A stretch of 64,000 nucleotides of DNA from Giardia intestinalis (Eukaryota): assembly GCA_000002435.2 (NCBI GenBank), contig CM018791.1. One strand, 5' to 3'. The notes under the pieces were generated by a model that was not told the DNA's origin, did not search any database, and saw nothing but the letters and a program-made list of their open reading frames with translations. The position numbers and the translations under genes are program-made. Shown here piece by piece: positions 4,668 to 14,482 of the stretch; within the stretch, counting starts at the first letter, position 1, and the number at the start of each line of letters is the position of its first letter.

Positions 4668-6410
4668 TCACTTGATATCGACGCAGATGTCAGCCTGCTC
4701 CAGGCCCAGATAACGCGTATAGGCTGCAGGTGCACCCTCAACCGCCTTGGGAGTAAAGGGCGTGAGCTGCGGGATCTTGTCCAGGACGGCCTTCAGAGAC
4801 CCGGCCTTGGCGGCACCCTTCAGGCTGACAACAGGCATCGACGGCATCCTCCACGTGATGTAAGGGACCCTTCCCTCAGATACGAGCTTTTGGTAGAGCC
4901 CGTACGCATCTGCGATGATCTCCCTGCTGGGAGCAGCATCATCTCTCAAGTTGATCTTCAGACCATCAATAAGGTCGTCCACGCTTGAGGGAATGTAGAT
5001 CACGCAATCAAACTTCTTCCCCGCCGCATCAACTGGCTCGCCATTCTTCTCATATATGGCGGCAATTCCGTCACCCTCCTGCTCACACGCCTTGACGGCA
5101 GCAGGGGCCAGCGGCGTGCGGTAAACAACCTGAGATGCGCAGTGCAGAGAGCCGTACATGCGGGTGATTCCTCGGAACGGAACGTAAACTAGATCGAGCC
5201 CGTTCGGCAAGTTGTTTGATTTGCAGTATGAGATGTACGCAGGATCTGCCTTGATGAAGTCCACTGTTGGTTGGTGGACGCTGAGGACGCAGTTGTTTCC
5301 CAGATTGAGATTATTGCAGCCATATGCAAGCTGGTACTCATGAGGAATGCGGACGATCGTGTAACCATTTTCGCTGAGCCACTGCTGGAACTCAACATTT
5401 GCCTTCGCCAAGACGTAATTTCCACAAGTGACTGCGGAGCTCTTTGCTTTTTTCACTGCATCAGCACCGACATCAATCCACTCGTCGACGTACCTCAGGC
5501 CCATCCCGGAGCAAATATAGTCATCGAGCACCACTAGCTTGTCGTGGAGGACGCTGAAGGTGCAGTCAAGGTGCATACGGTCCTGGTGCTGATCAAAGCA
5601 GTCCTTGACGACAGCAAACCGCCGGGTCCCGAGGAGATCTTTAGACATAAGATACTGCGCTCCGACATAGGTGCTGCGCAAGCCCACACCCATCATCGCC
5701 AGCCCGGGCGACACAGGCACGAAGTCCCCACCCTCGAGCATGCAGTGCGGTCCTCCCTCACGGCAGTCTCCCACGACGCGGGCCCCGAGGCGCTTCCAGA
5801 AGATCAGGGCCAGGACCTGCTCGCGCCTCCTCTGCGGCGCCTGAAACTGGCCCATGACTATTCCGCGCCGGGTGGTTATCTGCTGGTCACGCATAAAGAC
5901 CATGTTATTGCTATCGTGGATCTCCACAGAGTTGGTAACGAGAGCCGTGTTGCGGACACCAGGAGCTAGGTGGATGACGGGCTCGGATAAAATCACGTCT
6001 ACAAGGTTTCTGGTCGACAGGGCCGAAAGGACCTTGCGTTTGTACTCGTCCGAAACACAGTACTTCATCTTGGGGGTGATGCGTGCACCTGTGGCATGGA
6101 GCTCGTACTTCAGCGAGGCCATTGCTTGATCCATGAGGACCTCCCTCTCAGCCGGAGAGGCCTCGGAGAGGACGTCGTACGGCATATAAACCCGGCACCC
6201 CTTCTCCTTGAGAACGGCCTGGAAGCCCTCGTGATCGCGTCTGAGCTCGTCGGGGCATATGGGCTCCTCAAGCAAGTTCCCCTCGGGGTTGAGAGAGGTC
6301 AAGAACGACGTTCCCTGAGGGAGGTGCACGACGACTATCTCTGCGCGCTCGTTCTCTCCCCCCTGGGTTGCCTGTGCAAGCTTCTCTTTATCCTTGGAGA
6401 AGTCAGTCAT
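4668..6410 (-). CDS. ADI: Arginine deiminase (arginine dihydrolase pathway), 580 aa, with the long C-terminal extension typical of the Giardia enzyme
   Basis: Full-length ORF starting MTDFSKDKEKLAQ... The 580-aa length matches the published Giardia ADI. High-GC3 codon usage. A-rich tract before the ATG. AGTGAAT 4 nt after the stop. Confidence 0.9.
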   Translation of the reverse strand: MTDFSKDKEKLAQATQGGENERAEIVVVHLPQGTSFLTSLNPEGNLLEEPICPDELRRDHEGFQAVLKEKGCRVYMPYDVLSEASPAEREVLMDQAMASLKYELHATGARITPKMKYCVSDEYKRKVLSALSTRNLVDVILSEPVIHLAPGVRNTALVTNSVEIHDSNNMVFMRDQQITTRRGIVMGQFQAPQRRREQVLALIFWKRLGARVVGDCREGGPHCMLEGGDFVPVSPGLAMMGVGLRSTYVGAQYLMSKDLLGTRRFAVVKDCFDQHQDRMHLDCTFSVLHDKLVVLDDYICSGMGLRYVDEWIDVGADAVKKAKSSAVTCGNYVLAKANVEFQQWLSENGYTIVRIPHEYQLAYGCNNLNLGNNCVLSVHQPTVDFIKADPAYISYCKSNNLPNGLDLVYVPFRGITRMYGSLHCASQVVYRTPLAPAAVKACEQEGDGIAAIYEKNGEPVDAAGKKFDCVIYIPSSVDDLIDGLKINLRDDAAPSREIIADAYGLYQKLVSEGRVPYITWRMPSMPVVSLKGAAKAGSLKAVLDKIPQLTPFTPKAVEGAPAAYTRYLGLEQADICVDIK

Positions 6411-6684
6411 GTACTAGGATTTTTTTCTCCGGAAGTTTACACACCTCACGTGTAGACGTTTAGCTCTTCTCAAAAAGCATATAATAAATATATTAAATGC
6501 CAGGTTGGCGTTTTTCTATTGGCAGTTACACGCCGCGTTTCGCAGCCTCCCCCAATCCTCTTTGAATCTCTTTGACCGGTGTCGGTGGATCTACAGTTAC
6601 AGACCACAGTTTACTGTATAACCTCCCCTAAGTGAGGACGTGATGGACCTTAAGGGGCTCGAGGACCCCTCCGCCCCAATGCAA
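6411..6684 (-). promoter_or_regulatory. Upstream/promoter region of arginine deiminase, 274 bp (unusually long for this locus). It also contains the 3' UTR of the upstream ankyrin gene.
   Basis: A-rich initiator (gagaaaaaaatcctagtacATG on the minus strand). AT-rich block (aaaaagcatataataaatatattaaatg). Small hairpin tacacCTCACgtgta containing CACGTG. Direct repeat tctttgaatctctttga. Confidence 0.5.
6609..6615 (-). terminator. Polyadenylation signal AGTAAAC for the ankyrin/coiled-coil gene 6685..8967
   Basis: AGTRAAY match ~70 nt downstream of the stop, inside the ADI upstream region. Confidence 0.5.
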
Positions 6685-8967
6685 TCAAAGAACGCGGGGG
6701 TGTCTGTCTTCCCACTGGCTTCCACTACCTCTGGCCATCCAAGGATTCGGCCTATCCAAGGACGAATTGTTTCTGTCGGTGATGGCAGAGTATATCGGAT
6801 CCGAGTAGGGCTGTTCATGTCTCAGATGCGAGGGCTGCGCAGTGTGCGCCCTGTCAGTAAATGAAGTGCTTGTCAGTAACGACGGCGGGTCGAAGTGCGC
6901 CTGCGAGTCATTGTGGACCTCTGGATTCGCGTGGGCGGGATTAAAGTTGGTTCCGCGCGAGGTATACTCATTGTAGTCATCCGCCTGATTGGTGAAGGTG
7001 GTGCGCAAAGAAGCTTCACGAGGAACGTCTTTTGTTATGGGCGCAGGATGATCGTACTCTGTGTGAGACTCAAATGATGTCTTAATCTCATAGGGGTGCT
7101 CCACTTCCGCGGTCGAGTTGTAGAGGCTCTGGTGATCGCTAGCTTTACCGGACCCATACGAATCATTAGCGTTTCTAATGGTTGTATCGCGGCTCGCAGA
7201 CCTGCTTGTGTTAAAAGAGTGGTACGATCCGTTGGGCGTTGGATCGACAATCGGCCTAAGGCGACGACGGCGAGATGTAGAGAGCTCCGACATGGCCTGC
7301 ATATTCCTCATGCTATTATCAAGGCCAAAGCTGTTTGTTAGGCTTCTGTCACCACTCCTATCGCCATCTCTATCCTTGTCCTGTGTGCGTTCTAATTCAG
7401 TTCGCGAACGTGTTGTGTGCGATTGACTTCGAGAAGTAGAACGATCACGAAGCGTTCCTGTACGTCCATTTGGACTGTAAGTCTTTGTTGTCGTTGTCAC
7501 GGTGGTAACCTCTCTAACTATGTTGCTTTGATCAGCCATCGTTGAATCGTAGAGTCCGCTACTATTGGCACTAGCATGCATAGAATCGCTGGACAGATGC
7601 TGATTTGTGCGAGAGCGATGAGAGGTCAGGGCGCGCCTCTCTGTGGACTTGTTAGAAGCTGAGGTAGCCGACATTCCGTGGTAGTCAGATGTAGCCGAAT
7701 TTGGTGCTGCCCTCATAGTGCGTTGACGAAATACGAAATCAGGCTCTGTTTGAGGCATAAGTGGAGACTTTTCTCCCATGTACATCCTGTACGTCTTTAG
7801 TTGATCGGTTCTGCTGTCAAGAAGACTCTGCGTTTTCTGAAGCTTCTCAAGAGCCTTTTCATAGTCATCCTTCAGCCCGACAATAGAGGTGACCTGGTTC
7901 ATTTCTCTTTGTCTTTCTGCGCGCATGTCCTTTATCTGTCGTTCAAGCTCCTTGATGTAGGCAGCATTCTGCATCATTTCTGCGTTGATTCGATCACAGA
8001 TGTCTTCTGACGTCAGATTGTAACCTGTGTGGCTCTTGAAGACAGGGCTTCTTATGATGTACTCCAGCGCTGCAGCCTTCGTGCGCAGCTGTGCATTCTC
8101 CTCCTCGAGATCATAGATGTTTGACTTGTCTTTCTTAGCTGATGTTTTTGTTTTGCCCTTGCTGGTGTTTATTTGCGAATTAGCAGTCACTGAGGCCAGT
8201 TCCTCCAGTTGACTTTGTATGCGGTGCATATGATCGACGAAGCGGCTTATCAACAGATTAGAAGGCTCTGGACCCCCGTTGAACGTATTGAGGTAATAGT
8301 TCCGATCCTCGCCCATCACTTCTTGAAGACAGGTTCTAAAGCTAGCAATCTCTTTGTTAAGGTTCTCCACTTCAAAGGTGAGGTCAGGGACATCTGATTC
8401 TTGGCCTGTCAGGTGCTGCAAGGCAAGCCTGAGAAGTTTAGGTGCAAACATGTTCTTGCACTCTCCTGCCGTGCGGATCGCCTGGCGAATGTCGTCGGGC
8501 CTGAAGATACCAGAAAATCCCAGAGATATGACAATCCCTTGCTTCATAGACATGACTGCGTAGTCAAGAGCAGTGCGGTTGCTCTGGTCCTGCTCCCTAG
8601 TGCCGTATTTGAGCATAATATTGATAGAGTTAATGGCCCCAGCATGGGCCGCAACCATAAAGGCTGTCTTACCATCTGGCATGGTGTCCTTGTGCTCGAA
8701 GGGGGCCAAGATCTCTACCAGGCCCGCGTGGTCTGCTTCGCATGCCATCATCAATGCAGTAGAATGAGACGTCTGACTAAGTATTCCGCACTCCTTGGGA
8801 GCCAAGATTTTTACGGTTTCTGCGTCTCCCTGTCGCACTGCACACATCAAGCCCGTCTCACCGAAAGTGTTCCTCTTCCCCGCACATTCTTTCAAGTGCA
8901 CACTGACAACATCGTGTCGCCGCGTAGAAATCGCATGGAACCAATCTTGGGAAGAAAAGGTGGGCAT
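6685..8967 (-). CDS. Ankyrin-repeat plus coiled-coil protein ('protein 21.1'-like), 760 aa. N-terminal ankyrin repeats, central coiled coil, S/T/R/D-rich low-complexity C-terminal half.
   Basis: G-TALM-AA ankyrin motifs at the N-terminus. Heptad-rich middle (e.g. LEEENAQLRTKAAALE). ATG confirmed at 8965-8967. AGTAAAC about 70 nt downstream of the stop. Confidence 0.8.
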   Translation of the reverse strand: MPTFSSQDWFHAISTRRHDVVSVHLKECAGKRNTFGETGLMCAVRQGDAETVKILAPKECGILSQTSHSTALMMACEADHAGLVEILAPFEHKDTMPDGKTAFMVAAHAGAINSINIMLKYGTREQDQSNRTALDYAVMSMKQGIVISLGFSGIFRPDDIRQAIRTAGECKNMFAPKLLRLALQHLTGQESDVPDLTFEVENLNKEIASFRTCLQEVMGEDRNYYLNTFNGGPEPSNLLISRFVDHMHRIQSQLEELASVTANSQINTSKGKTKTSAKKDKSNIYDLEEENAQLRTKAAALEYIIRSPVFKSHTGYNLTSEDICDRINAEMMQNAAYIKELERQIKDMRAERQREMNQVTSIVGLKDDYEKALEKLQKTQSLLDSRTDQLKTYRMYMGEKSPLMPQTEPDFVFRQRTMRAAPNSATSDYHGMSATSASNKSTERRALTSHRSRTNQHLSSDSMHASANSSGLYDSTMADQSNIVREVTTVTTTTKTYSPNGRTGTLRDRSTSRSQSHTTRSRTELERTQDKDRDGDRSGDRSLTNSFGLDNSMRNMQAMSELSTSRRRRLRPIVDPTPNGSYHSFNTSRSASRDTTIRNANDSYGSGKASDHQSLYNSTAEVEHPYEIKTSFESHTEYDHPAPITKDVPREASLRTTFTNQADDYNEYTSRGTNFNPAHANPEVHNDSQAHFDPPSLLTSTSFTDRAHTAQPSHLRHEQPYSDPIYSAITDRNNSSLDRPNPWMARGSGSQWEDRHPRVL

Positions 8968-9096
8968 GGAGACAATAAACTTTTTTGGCGGGATTAAGTA
9001 AAGGTCGCCTCAGAAGTCAGATAATACAGATTACTTAAAGATTTACACTGAGCAAGTATACACCCCGGCAGGATTGCAGAAAACCCTACGTCGGCT
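8968..9096. promoter_or_regulatory. Bidirectional promoter region shared by the divergent paralogous ankyrin/coiled-coil genes
   Basis: 129-bp spacer between two ATGs on opposite strands. AT-rich tracts adjacent to both ATGs. Confidence 0.5.
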
Positions 9097-12000
9097 ATGG
9101 TTCAAATCTTATCGACTCCTTGTAAAAGTTACAAAAAAGAAGGAGTCCGCGCTATGAATTTCTCCGTTAGTACCAAGAAAGAGTGGTTTGCAAGTATCCT
9201 CGCGCATCGCTATGAGACTGTGCGCGCTTCCATGAAGAAGTTCAGCAAGTCCACAGACGTGGATGGGGAAACTGGGCTCATGTTGGCCACTCGCAACAGC
9301 GATATGGAAATGATCCGGATTCTCATGCCCGTTGAGGCGAAGCTCACCAATAAGGATGGGCTGACCGCATTAATGATTGCTGCGATGCTTGATAACAAGG
9401 ATACGTGTGAAGTCCTTGCAAAGGTGGAGAGTGACGTCATCCTCAAGGATGGCCAGAATGCACTTATGATCGCGGCTGCTAATGGCTCTCTTTCCGCTAC
9501 CAAAATGCTCCTGCGCCACATACAGTACGTTACAGACGATCTGGGGTGGACGGCTCTTGACCACGCAGCAAACGGAGGACATCTCAAGTGCGTGCAACTG
9601 CTTGTTGCAGAAGTCCCGTCCCTTACTGTTAGCGACTTCGAGAACGCTATCTCTGTGGCCTATGACAAGGGCCATTCGCATGTCGTCGATTACCTAGCGT
9701 CTATGATTTACCAGGCAGAAAAGGACACATATGGTGATGATAGTATGACTACTGGCAGCCCGTCCGGACAGACAAGGTCGCGCTCTTCCAGCAAAAGTCA
9801 CAAGAAGAACTCGCTAGAACAAGAAAATAAATCGCTCAAACAGATGAATGCCAAGCTGAATGAAGAGGTCGAAAGGCTGCGAGCTACAGACAAGCGGCGG
9901 CTACGCGAAACACCAAACGATGCTGAGCTGGAGGCAAGAATTCAGGAACTGGAGCGCGAAAACGATATGCTGCGCCAGACAATCCAAAAGAGAGACACTG
10001 GCAATAGCTCTAAGCATGGCGACAACTTGGACGCTAAGTATGACGATCTTTGGCATCAGAAAGAGAAGCTTGAGCAGGAGCTAGAGCACACTCGCAGAAA
10101 TCTGGAGGAGGCAAAGTCAGCTTACAATCGTGTCGATGATACGGAGGTCACGGCCCTCCGAGCTGAGCTGATAGAAGCTAGGGAAATTCAGGAGCAGCGA
10201 ACGCAGACGATCTCAACACTAAACAGGCAGATCGATGACATGCGAAGAGAGCTAGATTATTTGCGTGGAGACAACAAAGCCACGCGTGGAGATGCAGAGA
10301 ACATGGCCACCAGCGCGTCCCAGTTGGCAGGAGAGCTTCAGGACGCTCGTCATGAAATAGACAGACTGAATACCACAATCACCGAGCTCAGACAAGCTGG
10401 GAATCGCAATCCATACGATTCGAATATGGCTGTCCTTCAGCAAGGCCACGCCCAGATGCAGGACATTCAGGCCGAGAACAGAGCGCTGAAGCAGGAGCTT
10501 GACTACTATAGAAACATGCAAGCCAATCAGCCACCGTATCCTGGCTTGGCAGCACAGTCCTCGATGACACACTCTTTTAGGGACTACACTTCACAAGAAA
10601 AGGTAGACCTTAACGGCCCACATGTAATAAGATCAAAGCAGGATCCAGAGAGGGAGCGGACGCTCGACCTACTTCGGTTAGAAAATGCAGATCTGCGTGA
10701 GGTCATAAGGATGCGCGTGAACCCTGTAGCCTTAGACACTGACCCAGAGTCCATTGATGGGAAAATACTTCGGTTAGATAAGCTTAGGGTCGAGAATGAT
10801 CTTCTTAGGCACGAAATCCTGCTTAAGCACTCAATTCTTACCCTCAACATGGAGAAGGATCTTCAGACCATCCGAGCAGAAAATGTTCTTCTGCGCGACG
10901 CGCTTCGGTCCCGCACCTCTACATATGTCCCTCAGGATCTTATTGACCAACTCACTCGACAGAATGACATTATTGCAGCGGAGAACATAGAATATAGGCG
11001 TGCCATTGGCCAAGCAGCTTCTGTGCACCAGCCGTCATACCAAGACGGATATTCGCCTACTCTCAACCCCACTCTGCATGGAAATGGCGGATCCATACCA
11101 CCAGCAGTTATCCAGGAGATAGAGTCTCTGCGGCAGGAGAATCAGACACTCAAGCATCAACTGGCGACTGCACAGCTTGCCCCTTCGGTAGAAACTTTAC
11201 ATAGCACGCAACTTGTACAGCCCAACCACCCACCACTTGAGCTTCAGCGCGAGCTGGATAGACTCACAAATGAGAATATCGATTTGCGCTCCACAATTCA
11301 TCGTCTTCAGAGCAATCAGAATCAACCCCTTGGTAACTCAGTGTCAGACGCAACAGAGATCAGCATGCTGCGCTCAGAAAATGCTAGCCTCAGAGAGGCC
11401 ATGCGCACTCAGGTGCATGACACTAGCACAGGACTGCTTCACAGCCTCACTACAGAGATTGAGACGTTAAAGCAGGAAAACATTATGCTCAAGAATGCCC
11501 TTCATAACCAGCCACCTCCACCACAGCCCCAATCTGTCATCACTAATGTTGTTCCTCCGGAGACCACCTACGAGCTTGAAAGACTCAGAAACGAAAATGT
11601 GACACTCAAAGTTGAGCTAGATAAAACGCGCGCTAGCCTAATGACAGAGATAAACTCCCGTACTATGCAGAGCCAGGCCTCCTCCCAGCATCTTTTAACC
11701 GAGCTGGACACATACAAAGCGCAGATTCAGCGTCTTGAGCGCGAGAATGAACTACTCAGGTCCCTTCCACCTCAAAACATGGGCATGATGGGGACAAACG
11801 GGCCCATGCAAATCGTTATTCCAGGCCTTACACCAAATCGCGAGAACGTTAAGCGGGACGCTGATGGAAACACCAACCTTATCCGTGCTGTTAAAAATAA
11901 CAACATGGACCTTGTTCGCCGATTCTGGCCTGTCGAAGCTGGAGTCCAAAATAACAGAGGCGAATCTGCTCTGATGACCGCAATAGAAATGAACAACACA

Positions 12001-13470
12001 GACGCAGCCCTAATGCTTGTTGAAAGGGAGTCCGGGCTTCAGGATGCGACGGGCCGCTCGGCGCTCATGTGTGCCGCTGAACGGGATAATTACGAGGTTG
12101 CAGTCGAGCTTGCGCAACATGAGCAGGGCTTGAAAATGCCAGATGGTACAACTGCACTCATGATAGCAGCATCCAAGAACCATGTGCGGATCTGCAAGCT
12201 ACTTTCGGAGCAAGAGGGTCAGATGCGGAACACAGAGGGCAACACGGCTCTGCACATTGCTGCAAATCTTGATCACGCAGAAGCATGCGCAGTACTTGTG
12301 GAGCATGCAGGGCTCATTAAGGACAAGGCGGGCCATCTTGCCCTTCACAATGCGTGCATCAGAGGGAATAAGAACGCAGCCCGCGCTCTCTATCGCAAAG
12401 AGAATGGCTTCCATCAGTTTGATGGTTGGACTCCGTTGATGGGTGCAGCGGCCATTGATGACATGACAGAGCTTCGGTTCTATCTTGAGAACTACGTCGG
12501 AATGAAGGACAAGGATGGCATGACTGCGCTCATGTATGCTGCGGTTTGCAACAATCCCAATGCCATTCTGCAGCTCTTGGAGAGGGAATCAGGAATGCGC
12601 ACTAACAAGGGCTACACCGCGCTCATGCTTGCAGCTGAGAAAAATAACGTCAATGCGGTGCAGGTCCTCATGCCCAAGGAGGCTACAATTATGAACAACG
12701 AACGGGAAACGGCCCTGATGATCGCATCTCGGGCAGGTGCCACAGAGTCTGCACGCATCCTGGTGCCCACAGAGGGTGGCATCCGCATGCTGGATGGAAC
12801 GTCCGCACTTAGACTCGCGCTCGATTACAACAACCAAGAACTAGCCCGGTTCTTAGCAGAGCGAGAAGGGATTGCTGTGGGCCAACTCACGCGTGACTTC
12901 CACGGCCGAACAGATCTCATGCGCGCCGCAGAAGAGGGAGACGCCGTATCGGTTTACTGTCTGTTGCCAAGTCAGGGCGGACTTGTTGATGTCGACGGGA
13001 AGACGGCGCTCATGTACGCCTGCGAGCGTGGGCATGTTCAGTGTGCAAGGCTGCTCAAGGAGAAGGAAGCAAGGATGCGCCGGACGATGCGCGACTCATG
13101 GGAGGGTCAGACGGCGCTTATGTTTGCAGCGCAGGCAGGAAGTGTGGAGATCGTAGACCTGCTAATCGACGTTGAGGGAGGCTGCTCTTGCGCCAACGGA
13201 TGGACTGCTCTGATGAGCGCAGCCAGATTCAACAAGGTGGCATGTGTTGAGGCGCTCCTGGACCGCGAGGCGCGCATGCAGACAAATGAGCGGTTCGCTG
13301 CTGGGGCAGGATACACGGCCCTTATGGCTGCCGCAGAATGGTCGTTCATTAAGTGTGTGCGCGCACTGCTTCCTCGCGAGCATGATATCAGGCACTCCAG
13401 CGGAAAGACCGCGATAGACTTTGCGAAGACGAGCACCATCCTCGAGTGCATCAACAACTACCGTCCTTAG
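9097..13470 (+). CDS. Ankyrin-repeat plus coiled-coil protein ('protein 21.1'-like), 1457 aa. About 4 N-terminal ankyrin repeats, ~650-aa coiled coil, ~17 C-terminal ankyrin repeats. The true start may be the second ATG near 9154 (MNFSVSTKKEWF...).
   Basis: ORF in track. N-terminus is paralogous to the divergently transcribed gene at 6685..8967 (WF..I..R...GETGLM.A.R..D.E...IL.P.E). Alignment and an AT-rich tract (aaaagttacaaaaaagaagg) favour the second Met. Confidence 0.8.
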   Translation: MVQILSTPCKSYKKEGVRAMNFSVSTKKEWFASILAHRYETVRASMKKFSKSTDVDGETGLMLATRNSDMEMIRILMPVEAKLTNKDGLTALMIAAMLDNKDTCEVLAKVESDVILKDGQNALMIAAANGSLSATKMLLRHIQYVTDDLGWTALDHAANGGHLKCVQLLVAEVPSLTVSDFENAISVAYDKGHSHVVDYLASMIYQAEKDTYGDDSMTTGSPSGQTRSRSSSKSHKKNSLEQENKSLKQMNAKLNEEVERLRATDKRRLRETPNDAELEARIQELERENDMLRQTIQKRDTGNSSKHGDNLDAKYDDLWHQKEKLEQELEHTRRNLEEAKSAYNRVDDTEVTALRAELIEAREIQEQRTQTISTLNRQIDDMRRELDYLRGDNKATRGDAENMATSASQLAGELQDARHEIDRLNTTITELRQAGNRNPYDSNMAVLQQGHAQMQDIQAENRALKQELDYYRNMQANQPPYPGLAAQSSMTHSFRDYTSQEKVDLNGPHVIRSKQDPERERTLDLLRLENADLREVIRMRVNPVALDTDPESIDGKILRLDKLRVENDLLRHEILLKHSILTLNMEKDLQTIRAENVLLRDALRSRTSTYVPQDLIDQLTRQNDIIAAENIEYRRAIGQAASVHQPSYQDGYSPTLNPTLHGNGGSIPPAVIQEIESLRQENQTLKHQLATAQLAPSVETLHSTQLVQPNHPPLELQRELDRLTNENIDLRSTIHRLQSNQNQPLGNSVSDATEISMLRSENASLREAMRTQVHDTSTGLLHSLTTEIETLKQENIMLKNALHNQPPPPQPQSVITNVVPPETTYELERLRNENVTLKVELDKTRASLMTEINSRTMQSQASSQHLLTELDTYKAQIQRLERENELLRSLPPQNMGMMGTNGPMQIVIPGLTPNRENVKRDADGNTNLIRAVKNNNMDLVRRFWPVEAGVQNNRGESALMTAIEMNNTDAALMLVERESGLQDATGRSALMCAAERDNYEVAVELAQHEQGLKMPDGTTALMIAASKNHVRICKLLSEQEGQMRNTEGNTALHIAANLDHAEACAVLVEHAGLIKDKAGHLALHNACIRGNKNAARALYRKENGFHQFDGWTPLMGAAAIDDMTELRFYLENYVGMKDKDGMTALMYAAVCNNPNAILQLLERESGMRTNKGYTALMLAAEKNNVNAVQVLMPKEATIMNNERETALMIASRAGATESARILVPTEGGIRMLDGTSALRLALDYNNQELARFLAEREGIAVGQLTRDFHGRTDLMRAAEEGDAVSVYCLLPSQGGLVDVDGKTALMYACERGHVQCARLLKEKEARMRRTMRDSWEGQTALMFAAQAGSVEIVDLLIDVEGGCSCANGWTALMSAARFNKVACVEALLDREARMQTNERFAAGAGYTALMAAAEWSFIKCVRALLPREHDIRHSSGKTAIDFAKTSTILECINNYRP
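11857..13440 (+). repeat. Coding array of ~17 tandem ankyrin repeats (Giardia '21.1'-type: E.G....G.TALM.AA) in the C-terminal third of the 1457-aa protein
   Basis: Recurring ~33-aa units, e.g. GESALMTAIEMNNTDAALMLVERESGLQDATGRSALMCAAERDN... through ...GKTAIDFAKT. Confidence 0.75.
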
Positions 13471-13542: not shown

Positions 13543-13953
13543 TTAGCAAACTCCGCACATGGCCAGCGAGCCGATTATGATGACGCAGATAGCACACACT
13601 ACAAGTACAACAAAAGCGACGTGAGTGAACCAGGTTTCTACTGGCATACTGGAGGACCAATTCTCATACCAAGGCTGCGCCAGGCCCCACCAAAGCATCA
13701 TGGCACCGCGGAAAAGGTGGTGGGCGATAAAGCCAGACCAGGAGTTCTCGATGAAGGAGTCCCCAAAGCCCGTCCCGAAATCAGAGATGAGAGTGATGAC
13801 CATCCAGAAGAGGAGGGCAAGCTGGTAGACGTGATTCCCGACATGGTCGGTGCCCAGCAGCATCTTAGTGAGCATACCAATGCCGCCTGCAGCAGCCCCA
13901 ACGACCGTGAACCACTTCGCAGTCTCACCCGCGCAACCGGACGCCTTAGTCAT
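13543..13953 (-). CDS. Small ~4-TM membrane protein, 136 aa. Paralog A of a tandem pair. Weak TMEM14-like GG-x-G helix motif.
   Basis: ATG at 13951-13953. Hydrophobic segments with small-residue motifs (AAAGGIGM). ~25% identity to the next gene. AGTAAAT downstream of the stop. Confidence 0.65.
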   Translation of the reverse strand: MTKASGCAGETAKWFTVVGAAAGGIGMLTKMLLGTDHVGNHVYQLALLFWMVITLISDFGTGFGDSFIENSWSGFIAHHLFRGAMMLWWGLAQPWYENWSSSMPVETWFTHVAFVVLVVCAICVIIIGSLAMCGVC

Positions 13954-14068: not shown

Positions 14069-14482
14069 TCAGGCGCAAAAGTGAAGAGCTATTCCCAAAA
14101 TCATGACCAAGGCTCCTCCCGTGAGTAAGATGATCCAAAGCACCTTTGTGAGAATGAAAAGTGTTGTAACAGATGCTAAAAGCTGCGTCCAGGTAGTGTA
14201 GCAAGGGAGCATAAGCGAGATTATGATCATACAAGCGCCCCGCTTTACGGGCATTCTTCCTGTCTCTGAGATATACTTAGCATTGAGCGTGTTTGCCGGC
14301 TCCAAACTGAAATCCGCAAGACCCATGAGGACAAGCCACATGGATAAGACTAAGTGTAGCAGAAAGTCGCCCACATATGAGCCCTGGAAAAGAAGAGACG
14401 CAGATGCAAGAGCCCCTGCTGTGCAGGAACCAACGCTGATCCACTTGATCACGCTTGAGAGGACATCTGTGCGATCAGCCAT
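14069..14482 (-). CDS. Small ~4-TM membrane protein, ~138 aa. Paralog B of the tandem pair. The track ORF 14069..14689 begins at a TTG; the true ATG is at ~14480-14482 (MADRTDVL...).
   Basis: The first codon of the track ORF is TTG (CAA on the plus strand at ~14687-14689). The first in-frame ATG gives a protein the same size as paralog A. Shared K-W...G..G...W.V...DF...RGA.M signature. Confidence 0.6.
   Translation of the reverse strand: MADRTDVLSSVIKWISVGSCTAGALASASLLFQGSYVGDFLLHLVLSMWLVLMGLADFSLEPANTLNAKYISETGRMPVKRGACMIIISLMLPCYTTWTQLLASVTTLFILTKVLWIILLTGGALVMILGIALHFCA

Follow-up and report, generated by a model that had tools for sequence, protein, structure and literature searches.

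Ankyrin repeat proteins (ARPs), whether ankyrin-only or ankyrin-plus, are encoded by ~305 of the 4963 genes of Giardia intestinalis WB (PMC7000408; PMC7641422), and a TALM-type repeat start is a hallmark of the Giardia ankyrins (PMC3218828). These ~305 ARPs include ~30 ankyrin disc-associated proteins (DAPs), about 12 of which are disc-margin proteins (bioRxiv 10.1101/361105). Here we consider two ankyrin genes, GL50803_17096 and GL50803_17097 (hereafter 17096 and 17097), which lie head-to-head at 6685-13470 of a 64,000-nucleotide stretch of G. intestinalis contig CM018791.1, referred to below as the window. An earlier note, made from the sequence alone, had taken them for an inverted duplication of '21.1'-type ankyrin/coiled-coil genes sharing a 129-bp bidirectional promoter. 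We think it probable that they are instead an ordinary neighbouring pair of the TALM-ankyrin family, alike at the level of the family and served by promoters of their own that stand back-to-back.

Both genes are the very ones described among the lateral-crest and disc-margin DAPs (Hagen et al. 2011, PMC3243723). In the passages of PMC3243723 and PMC4931700 that concern them, DAP17096 with GFP fused to its C-terminus is seen at the disc edge, or lateral crest, and at the basal bodies, and DAP17097, tagged likewise, at the disc edge, the basal bodies, the anterior axonemes and sometimes the median body. DAP17096-GFP serves routinely to mark the lateral crest (bioRxiv 10.1101/213421). That the two products may be components of one cytoskeletal structure, as was suggested from the sequence, is thus already an experimental fact, the disc edge/lateral crest and the basal bodies being sites common to both. 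The photobleaching passages of PMC3243723 report that the basal-body pool recovers and that the lateral-crest protein DAP13981 shows no recovery at the disc. The adjacency, divergent orientation, paralogy and promoter of 17096 and 17097 are not discussed in the searched passages of PMC3243723, nor are their adjacency and shared module in the searched passages of the localisation papers. PMC7058931, considered as a further 17097 paper, was set aside, the '17097' in it being an unrelated accession number.

Identity of the two genes and extent of their homology

The listing of open reading frames (ORFs) gives a 760-aa ORF on the minus strand (6685-8967) and a 1457-aa ORF on the plus strand (9097-13470), with 129 bp between their first ATGs; the latter has another in-frame ATG, its second, at 9154. 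This reproduces the coordinates, the gap and the head-to-head layout given before. The first product is identical in sequence to G. intestinalis WB XP_001705753.1/A8BPH5 (P0172), the DH-isolate orthologue of which bears the name DHA2_17096, and the second matches exactly both XP_001705749.1 (1457 aa, P0185, the old model) and XP_001705749.2 (1438 aa, P0184). The entries for the two genes in Table 1 of PMC3243723 give 760 aa for GL50803_17096 and 1457 aa for GL50803_17097, and list orthologues with neighbouring IDs for the GS and P15 genomes. Identity to the WB RefSeq proteins, together with the matching IDs and lengths, therefore establishes that the ORFs are the annotated, named and already characterised genes DAP17096 (coding sequence 6685-8967, minus strand, 760 aa) and DAP17097 (coding sequence 9154-13470, plus strand, 1438 aa when read from the second ATG, which is conserved).

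The names carried by the exact sequences in their sources, 'Protein 21.1 [Giardia lamblia ATCC 50803]' and 'Ankyrin repeat protein 1', bear out the assignment to the 21.1 type. Only Ank-clan Pfam families score above cut-off in either protein (Ank_2, E 5e-17 for 17096 and 7e-148 for 17097); no kinase, zinc-finger or other Pfam domain does so, SIKE and DUF1664 being below cut-off. GxTALM-like repeat starts, spaced by ~31 aa, number four in 17096 and four plus about 16 in 17097, and in both proteins the Pfam ankyrin matches are followed by helix-rich, heptad-like regions, in agreement with the ankyrin-then-coiled-coil order reported earlier. In their ankyrin-only domain content, TALM starts, coiled-coil regions and names the two are like the Giardia Protein 21.1/ARP-1 family (PMC3218828; Xu et al. 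2020, PMC7000408), from which they are indistinguishable at family level, save for a 12-fold coiled-coil motif in 17097 that is described below.

The N-terminal resemblance noticed earlier is significant. The best BLASTP match between the two proteins joins residues 5-137 of 17096 with residues 26-157 of 17097 (34% identity over 133 aa, 83 bits, E 5e-20), and the N-terminus of 17096 reaches merely 39-54 bits against the C-terminal ankyrin array of 17097. Beyond the ankyrin module no significant similarity was found between their coiled-coil regions or the tail (best E 0.055), so that the homology is limited to the four N-terminal ankyrin repeats. At the DNA level, no inverted repeat was found across 6685-13470, where three chance-like matches of 24-35 nt show 71-74% complementarity.

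What is shared is a module of ~140-190 aa, with EWFxA...Y..V followed by GxTALM repeats and TALDYA at its end, and it is widespread. Residues 1-200 of 17096, used in an exhaustive HMMER search of 1.84 billion cluster representatives, gave 9762 matches at E<1e-3. Of the best 150 of these (50%-identity clusters), 48 that are not orthologous to either gene likewise have the module at the N-terminus, and in register. By best single high-scoring segment pair, the 17096 module reaches 221 bits with its G. muris orthologue P0008, after which about 20 non-orthologous representatives come before 17097 (80 bits), among them the G. muris paralogues P0077, P0082, P0009 and P0111 and a G. intestinalis P15 'Protein 21.1' (P0114; 100 bits, 41% identity). 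In the converse ranking for the 17097 module, 17096 stands about 36th, after P0137, P0096, P0101 (G. intestinalis assemblage B, 132 bits) and others. The first match to 17096 from outside G. intestinalis, P0005 of G. muris, was dropped as its orthologue, the locus not being syntenic.

The phylogeny of the module is consistent with these rankings. In a neighbour-joining tree of 57 modules (190 trimmed columns, 300 bootstraps) the orthologues of 17096 form a clade in 290 of the 300 replicates and those of 17097 in all 300, and an exclusive clade of the two was recovered in none. Ranked by corrected distance, 17097 is 43rd of 56 from 17096, and 17096 is 47th of 56 from 17097. Four-point quartets pair the two genes in 8% of cases for WB and in 24% for G. 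muris, where one-third would be expected at random; this fraction lies at the 10th percentile of all pairs, the median over pairs being 30%, and true sister pairs reach 0.9-1.0. Of the signs by which a head-to-head duplication might be recognised, an exclusive sister relationship, homology along the gene bodies and a DNA inverted repeat, none was found. Since the two modules do not rank or cluster as sisters and the module itself is family-wide, the N-terminal resemblance is family-level, and a locus-specific inverted duplication is not supported.

Adjacency alone adds little to this. If the ~305 ARPs were placed at random, simple arithmetic predicts about 19 cases in which two ARPs adjoin, of which about 5 would be head-to-head, so that neighbouring members of the family are expected by chance and the position of 17096 next to 17097 carries no weight by itself. 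No third ankyrin gene was found within the 64-kb window. Elsewhere, an assemblage-B-like G. intestinalis contig (L008, 7475-18775) holds four consecutive same-strand ankyrin genes of 275, 518, 1819 and 1045 aa, a run illustrating how often genes of this family adjoin one another; the 1819-aa gene is the orthologue of P0101, one of the representatives closest to the N-terminal module of 17097. The recently duplicated VSP pairs of Giardia, head-to-head or tail-to-tail (PMC7000408 Table 2), are comparable in being two close family members in divergent orientation. However, the VSP pairs are near-identical and have kilobase-long spacers, often with a retrotransposon remnant, whereas 17096 and 17097 share only 34% over 133 aa, have no DNA similarity and are separated by a spacer of 186 bp.

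An inverted tandem duplication of one ankyrin/coiled-coil gene could nevertheless have taken place before the Giardia species split, the copies keeping their destination and diverging beyond recognition outside the N-terminal module. Such an origin would account for two genes that lie side by side, point away from each other and agree in the order of their modules, for the localisation of both products at the same two structures (in the relevant passages of PMC3243723) and for the presence of the pair already in G. muris, and the poorly resolved deep nodes of the tree permit a great age. It has to be set against the lack of specific affinity between the two modules in bootstraps, distance ranks and quartets (the last below the random third), against the many paralogues to which either gene is closer than it is to its neighbour, against the lack of similarity outside the ankyrin repeats, and against the number of adjacent family pairs that chance alone supplies per genome (gene counts from PMC7000408). 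We therefore regard an ancient duplication as improbable.

Several observations weigh against the explanation that we prefer, that of two ordinary family neighbours. Above the orthologue clades the deep branches of the module tree carry bootstraps of 0-45, which may leave room for a very old duplication of the pair. The module of 17097 is very strongly kept in G. muris (corrected WB-G. muris distance 0.35, vs 0.78 for that of 17096), and an evolutionary rate of 17096 about twice that of 17097 might hide a sister relationship. The modules compared came from representatives of 50%-identity clusters, drawn from mixed Giardia lineages, and not from the complete proteome of a single genome. Moreover, that both neighbours should reach the lateral crest as well as the basal bodies exceeds random expectation, which hints that some link, functional or historical, exists between them. 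As to their promoters, the model of two separate elements is one that we infer from conservation alone.

Start codon of 17097 and the intergenic spacer

The length of the spacer depends on where 17097 starts. In an alignment of WB with P15 (L005) and a divergent assemblage (L002/L004, in which the 17096 orthologue is 86% identical), the ATG at 9097 is specific to assemblage A and reads CTT/TTG in the two other assemblages, and the sequence from 9097 to about 9113 is unconstrained. The orthologues of 17097, of 1440 and 1442 aa in the other assemblages and of 1272 aa, all begin at the ATG equivalent to 9154. The N-terminus of the G. muris orthologue, MNFSVNTRKEWF (MNFSV...), is likewise the exact equivalent of that start. 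The 2020 re-annotation of WB made 626 start-codon corrections, that of 17097 among them, and described A-rich stretches before true starts (PMC7000408); RefSeq has accordingly already shortened the protein from XP_001705749.1 (1457 aa) to XP_001705749.2 (1438 aa). These comparisons indicate that the true start is the second ATG, at 9154, as the earlier note had deduced and as was already known. It follows that the true spacer between the divergent start codons is 8968-9153, of 186 bp, and not 129 bp; its orthologues measure 189-190 bp in the other assemblages and 111 bp in G. muris.

Conservation within the spacer is confined to its two ends. The block next to 17096 (8968-9007, minus strand), a putative A-rich initiator or minimal promoter of that gene, reads ...CCGCCAAAAAAGTTTATTGTCTCC-ATG on the sense strand of 17096, has an A-run of 6 among the 20 nt nearest the ATG, and is 73-88% identical across assemblages, vs 38-75% for the middle of the spacer. 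The block next to 17097 (9114-9153, plus strand), for which a corresponding role is proposed, reads GACTCCTTGTAAAAGTTACAAAAAAGAAGGAGTCCGCGCT-ATG, has A at 15 of its 40 positions, with an A-run of 6, and is 85-90% identical across assemblages, equal to the flanking coding sequence. Between them, the mid-spacer (9008-9113) is unconstrained and holds the assemblage-A-specific ATG (9097-9099) that was used by the old annotation. Between WB and the divergent assemblage (L002) identity is 73% in the 40 bp at the ATG of 17096, 38% in the middle 106 bp and 85% in the 40 bp at the ATG of 17097. The 111-bp spacer of G. muris is A-rich directly before each ATG, with GGAAAAAGTAATAAAAAAAG-ATG upstream of the 17096 orthologue, and is GC-rich in its middle.

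This pattern resembles what is known of promoters in Giardia. The 5' untranslated regions of this organism are very short, sequencing of transcription start sites (TSS-seq) having placed initiation at most 40 nt from the start codon for 2448 ORFs, with an A/T-rich initiator consensus (PMC3792122). The minimal A/T-rich initiators and 'bidirectional' loci described by Tolba et al. (2013, PMC3792122; Teodorovic et al. cited therein) are alike in having A-rich sequence ~10-35 nt from the ATGs and a short spacer. Here, by contrast, there are two separate conserved blocks and no sign of one symmetrical two-way element. Two conserved blocks, each adjacent to an ATG, with an unconstrained middle argue for two minimal promoters over one shared element. 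The simplest and most likely reading of the conservation pattern, taken together with the published features of Giardia promoters, would thus be two promoters placed back-to-back, each gene being served by its own minimal A-rich, initiator-type element within about 40 bp of its ATG. Such an arrangement in a 186-bp spacer would be usual in the compact Giardia genome.

A single bidirectional promoter could alternatively drive both genes from this spacer and ensure stoichiometric co-expression of two lateral-crest components. The divergent start codons, 186 bp apart, fall within the <1 kb expected of genes that share a promoter. The spacer is very short in G. muris as well, the divergent orientation is kept across Giardia, the products co-localise, and bidirectional initiation from A/T-rich elements has been documented in Giardia (PMC3792122). 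However, the conserved blocks lie about 105 bp apart, each at its own ATG, and the sequence between them is only 38% identical. The authors of the TSS-seq study moreover read many apparently bidirectional loci, most of them in fact, as two nearby unidirectional initiators (PMC3792122), and conserved adjacency can be explained by the five-gene syntenic block described below with no selection on the pair. A candidate shared motif upstream of the two genes, AAAAGTTWA, is not enriched (1 match vs 0.8 expected). A scan of the spacer for sigma-70 promoters and intrinsic terminators gave no match, these being bacterial models that are not applicable to a eukaryote, and neither 17096 nor 17097 is mentioned in the supplements of the TSS-seq paper (PMC3792122). 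A shared 129-bp bidirectional promoter is thus at best unproven, the true spacer being 186 bp long, and the pattern of two separate conserved blocks disfavours it; we judge a common promoter unlikely and retain the two back-to-back promoters as the preferred account.

Domain architecture of 17096 and 17097

The N-terminal region of 17096 (residues 1-150; 8518-8967, minus strand) comprises a WF helix and four TALM-type ankyrin repeats, which start at residues 36, 68, 99 and 130, as judged from motif positions and from Pfam matches to Ank_2 (12-88) and Ank_5 (97-137). It is followed by a helical, coiled-coil-like region (residues ~195-396; 7780-8385, minus strand) with heptad-score segments at 195-223, 274-307 and 321-392, where shuffled sequences place 2% of residues above threshold. 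In the low-confidence AlphaFold2 (AF2) prediction, helices continue as far as residue 396, a long one spanning 320-396 among them. The coiled-coil assignments in both proteins combine a crude heptad score with low-confidence AF2 secondary structure, and the models (predicted local distance difference test, pLDDT, of 38 for 17096 and 47 for residues 1-910 of 17097) are too poor for fold searches and were used for secondary-structure trends only.

The remainder of 17096 (residues 400-760; 6688-7770, minus strand) is rich in S (15%), T (12%) and R (10%) and has no secondary structure in AF2, with pLDDT below 35; composition and lack of predicted structure thus support the S/T/R-rich tail noted earlier, which is probably disordered. 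Alignment with the G. muris orthologue P0008 covers residues 8-399, with 50% identity in the helical region, and the tail beyond residue 399 cannot be aligned with P0008. The tail evolves fast and the N-terminal 400 aa do not. Across assemblages the orthologues of 17096 range from 752 to 813 aa (813 for P0003, 797 for P0004 and 752 for the orthologue in L005), and 'YSDPRLR'-like extra repeat units are seen near the C-terminus in some of them. Some 70 nt downstream of the stop codon, AGTAAA (6610-6615, minus strand) matches the polyadenylation-signal consensus of Giardia, AGTRAA, and may serve as such a signal.

In 17097, alignment and motifs define a WF helix, four TALM-ankyrin repeats and a cap (residues 1-190; 9154-9723, plus strand). 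A long segmented region (residues ~217-870; 9802-11763, plus strand) then follows, for which the heptad score and the long helices placed between 217 and 870 by AF2 (single sequence, low confidence) suggest a helical or coiled-coil structure. Within it, at window positions 9814-11765 (plus strand), the motif [LIVM]xxENxx[LIVM][RKH] occurs 12 times, for example as LRLENADLR, LRVENDLLR and IRAENVLLR, where 0.07 are expected from shuffles. The G. muris orthologue has 7 copies and 17096 has 1; among 150 family representatives, at least 3 copies are found only in the cluster of 17097 itself. If the flanking Leu occupies position 'd' of the heptad, the Asn would fall at 'a', in the manner of a register-setting polar core residue.

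The C-terminal part of 17097 (11866-13467, plus strand) is an array of TALM-ankyrin repeats, as defined by the Pfam Ank_2 match and by motif positions 924-1405 in the numbering of the 1457-aa model, with three further repeats spotted by eye. The C-terminal ankyrin block described earlier is thus present, but its count of 17 repeats is not reproduced, the array holding about 16.

This domain content suggests how the two proteins may contribute to the disc. The N-terminal four-repeat module presumably serves protein-protein docking or targeting, and the helical coiled-coil region presumably oligomerisation. Ankyrin docking and coiled-coil assembly together could then yield a stable structure at the disc perimeter, in line with the view of ankyrin DAPs in the literature. 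Beyond the coiled coil the two proteins diverge fully, into the S/T/R-rich, probably disordered tail of 17096 and the ~16-repeat array of 17097. It can further be imagined that DAP17096 and DAP17097 act as a functional unit, co-expressed from the compact spacer and co-assembling at the lateral crest and basal bodies, for example via their coiled coils, with the N-terminal module as the targeting domain of a disc-margin subfamily; we would give this proposal only a small chance of being correct.

Synteny, neighbouring genes and implications

The head-to-head pair is kept in P15 and in the divergent assemblage, flanked by an arginine deiminase gene and a BEACH-domain gene. In G. muris it is again head-to-head, within a five-gene block made up of a 464/491-aa coiled-coil gene, two genes of 134-137 aa, 17097 and 17096, the flanks of which differ from those in G. 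intestinalis. The two genes have therefore been linked since before the split of G. intestinalis and G. muris. Local synteny between the two species extends over about 3000 orthologues (PMC7641422), and since the pair lies inside a five-gene syntenic block in genomes where synteny is widespread, its retention needs no special explanation.

Downstream of 17097, tandem genes of 136 and 137 aa (13543-13953 and 14069-14482, both minus strand) encode apparently hydrophobic proteins. They match the tandem 134/137-aa pair at the syntenic position in G. muris (52% and 29-32% identity) and resemble an old tandem duplication, and their orthologues have no recorded Pfam match. In every G. intestinalis assemblage examined, the gene immediately downstream of 17096 is that of arginine deiminase (4668-6410, minus strand; orthologous loci show Pfam ADI). 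Its position in G. muris is taken by a 522-aa ankyrin gene (L007, 11736-13304), so that synteny breaks at an ankyrin gene. Antisense ORFs of 100-200 aa over the pair, at 8401-8997 (plus strand), 9210-9587, 9370-9681 and 10252-10572 (all minus strand) and similar ones, look like the spurious overlapping ORFs that were dropped in the 2020 re-annotation of WB (PMC7000408). An Rfam scan of the whole window gave no match. Entries of Table 1 of PMC3243723 include other disc genes with near-consecutive locus numbers in GS/P15, for example gamma-giardin 17230 and Nek/ankyrin 17231, annexins 7796 and 7797, and 103807 and 103810, which hint that disc-associated genes may often be neighbours.

Beyond housekeeping, these results matter little for the locus itself, as the genes had been annotated, the start codon corrected and the products localised beforehand. 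They do bear on how the family is read. Dozens of members carry the module, so that a match over 'WF + four ankyrin repeats' between Giardia 21.1 genes is no evidence of local duplication, and a short divergent spacer in Giardia is by itself no evidence of a shared promoter. On the positive side, two co-localising lateral-crest proteins encoded by a head-to-head pair that is conserved in G. muris offer a small lead on co-regulation or interaction.

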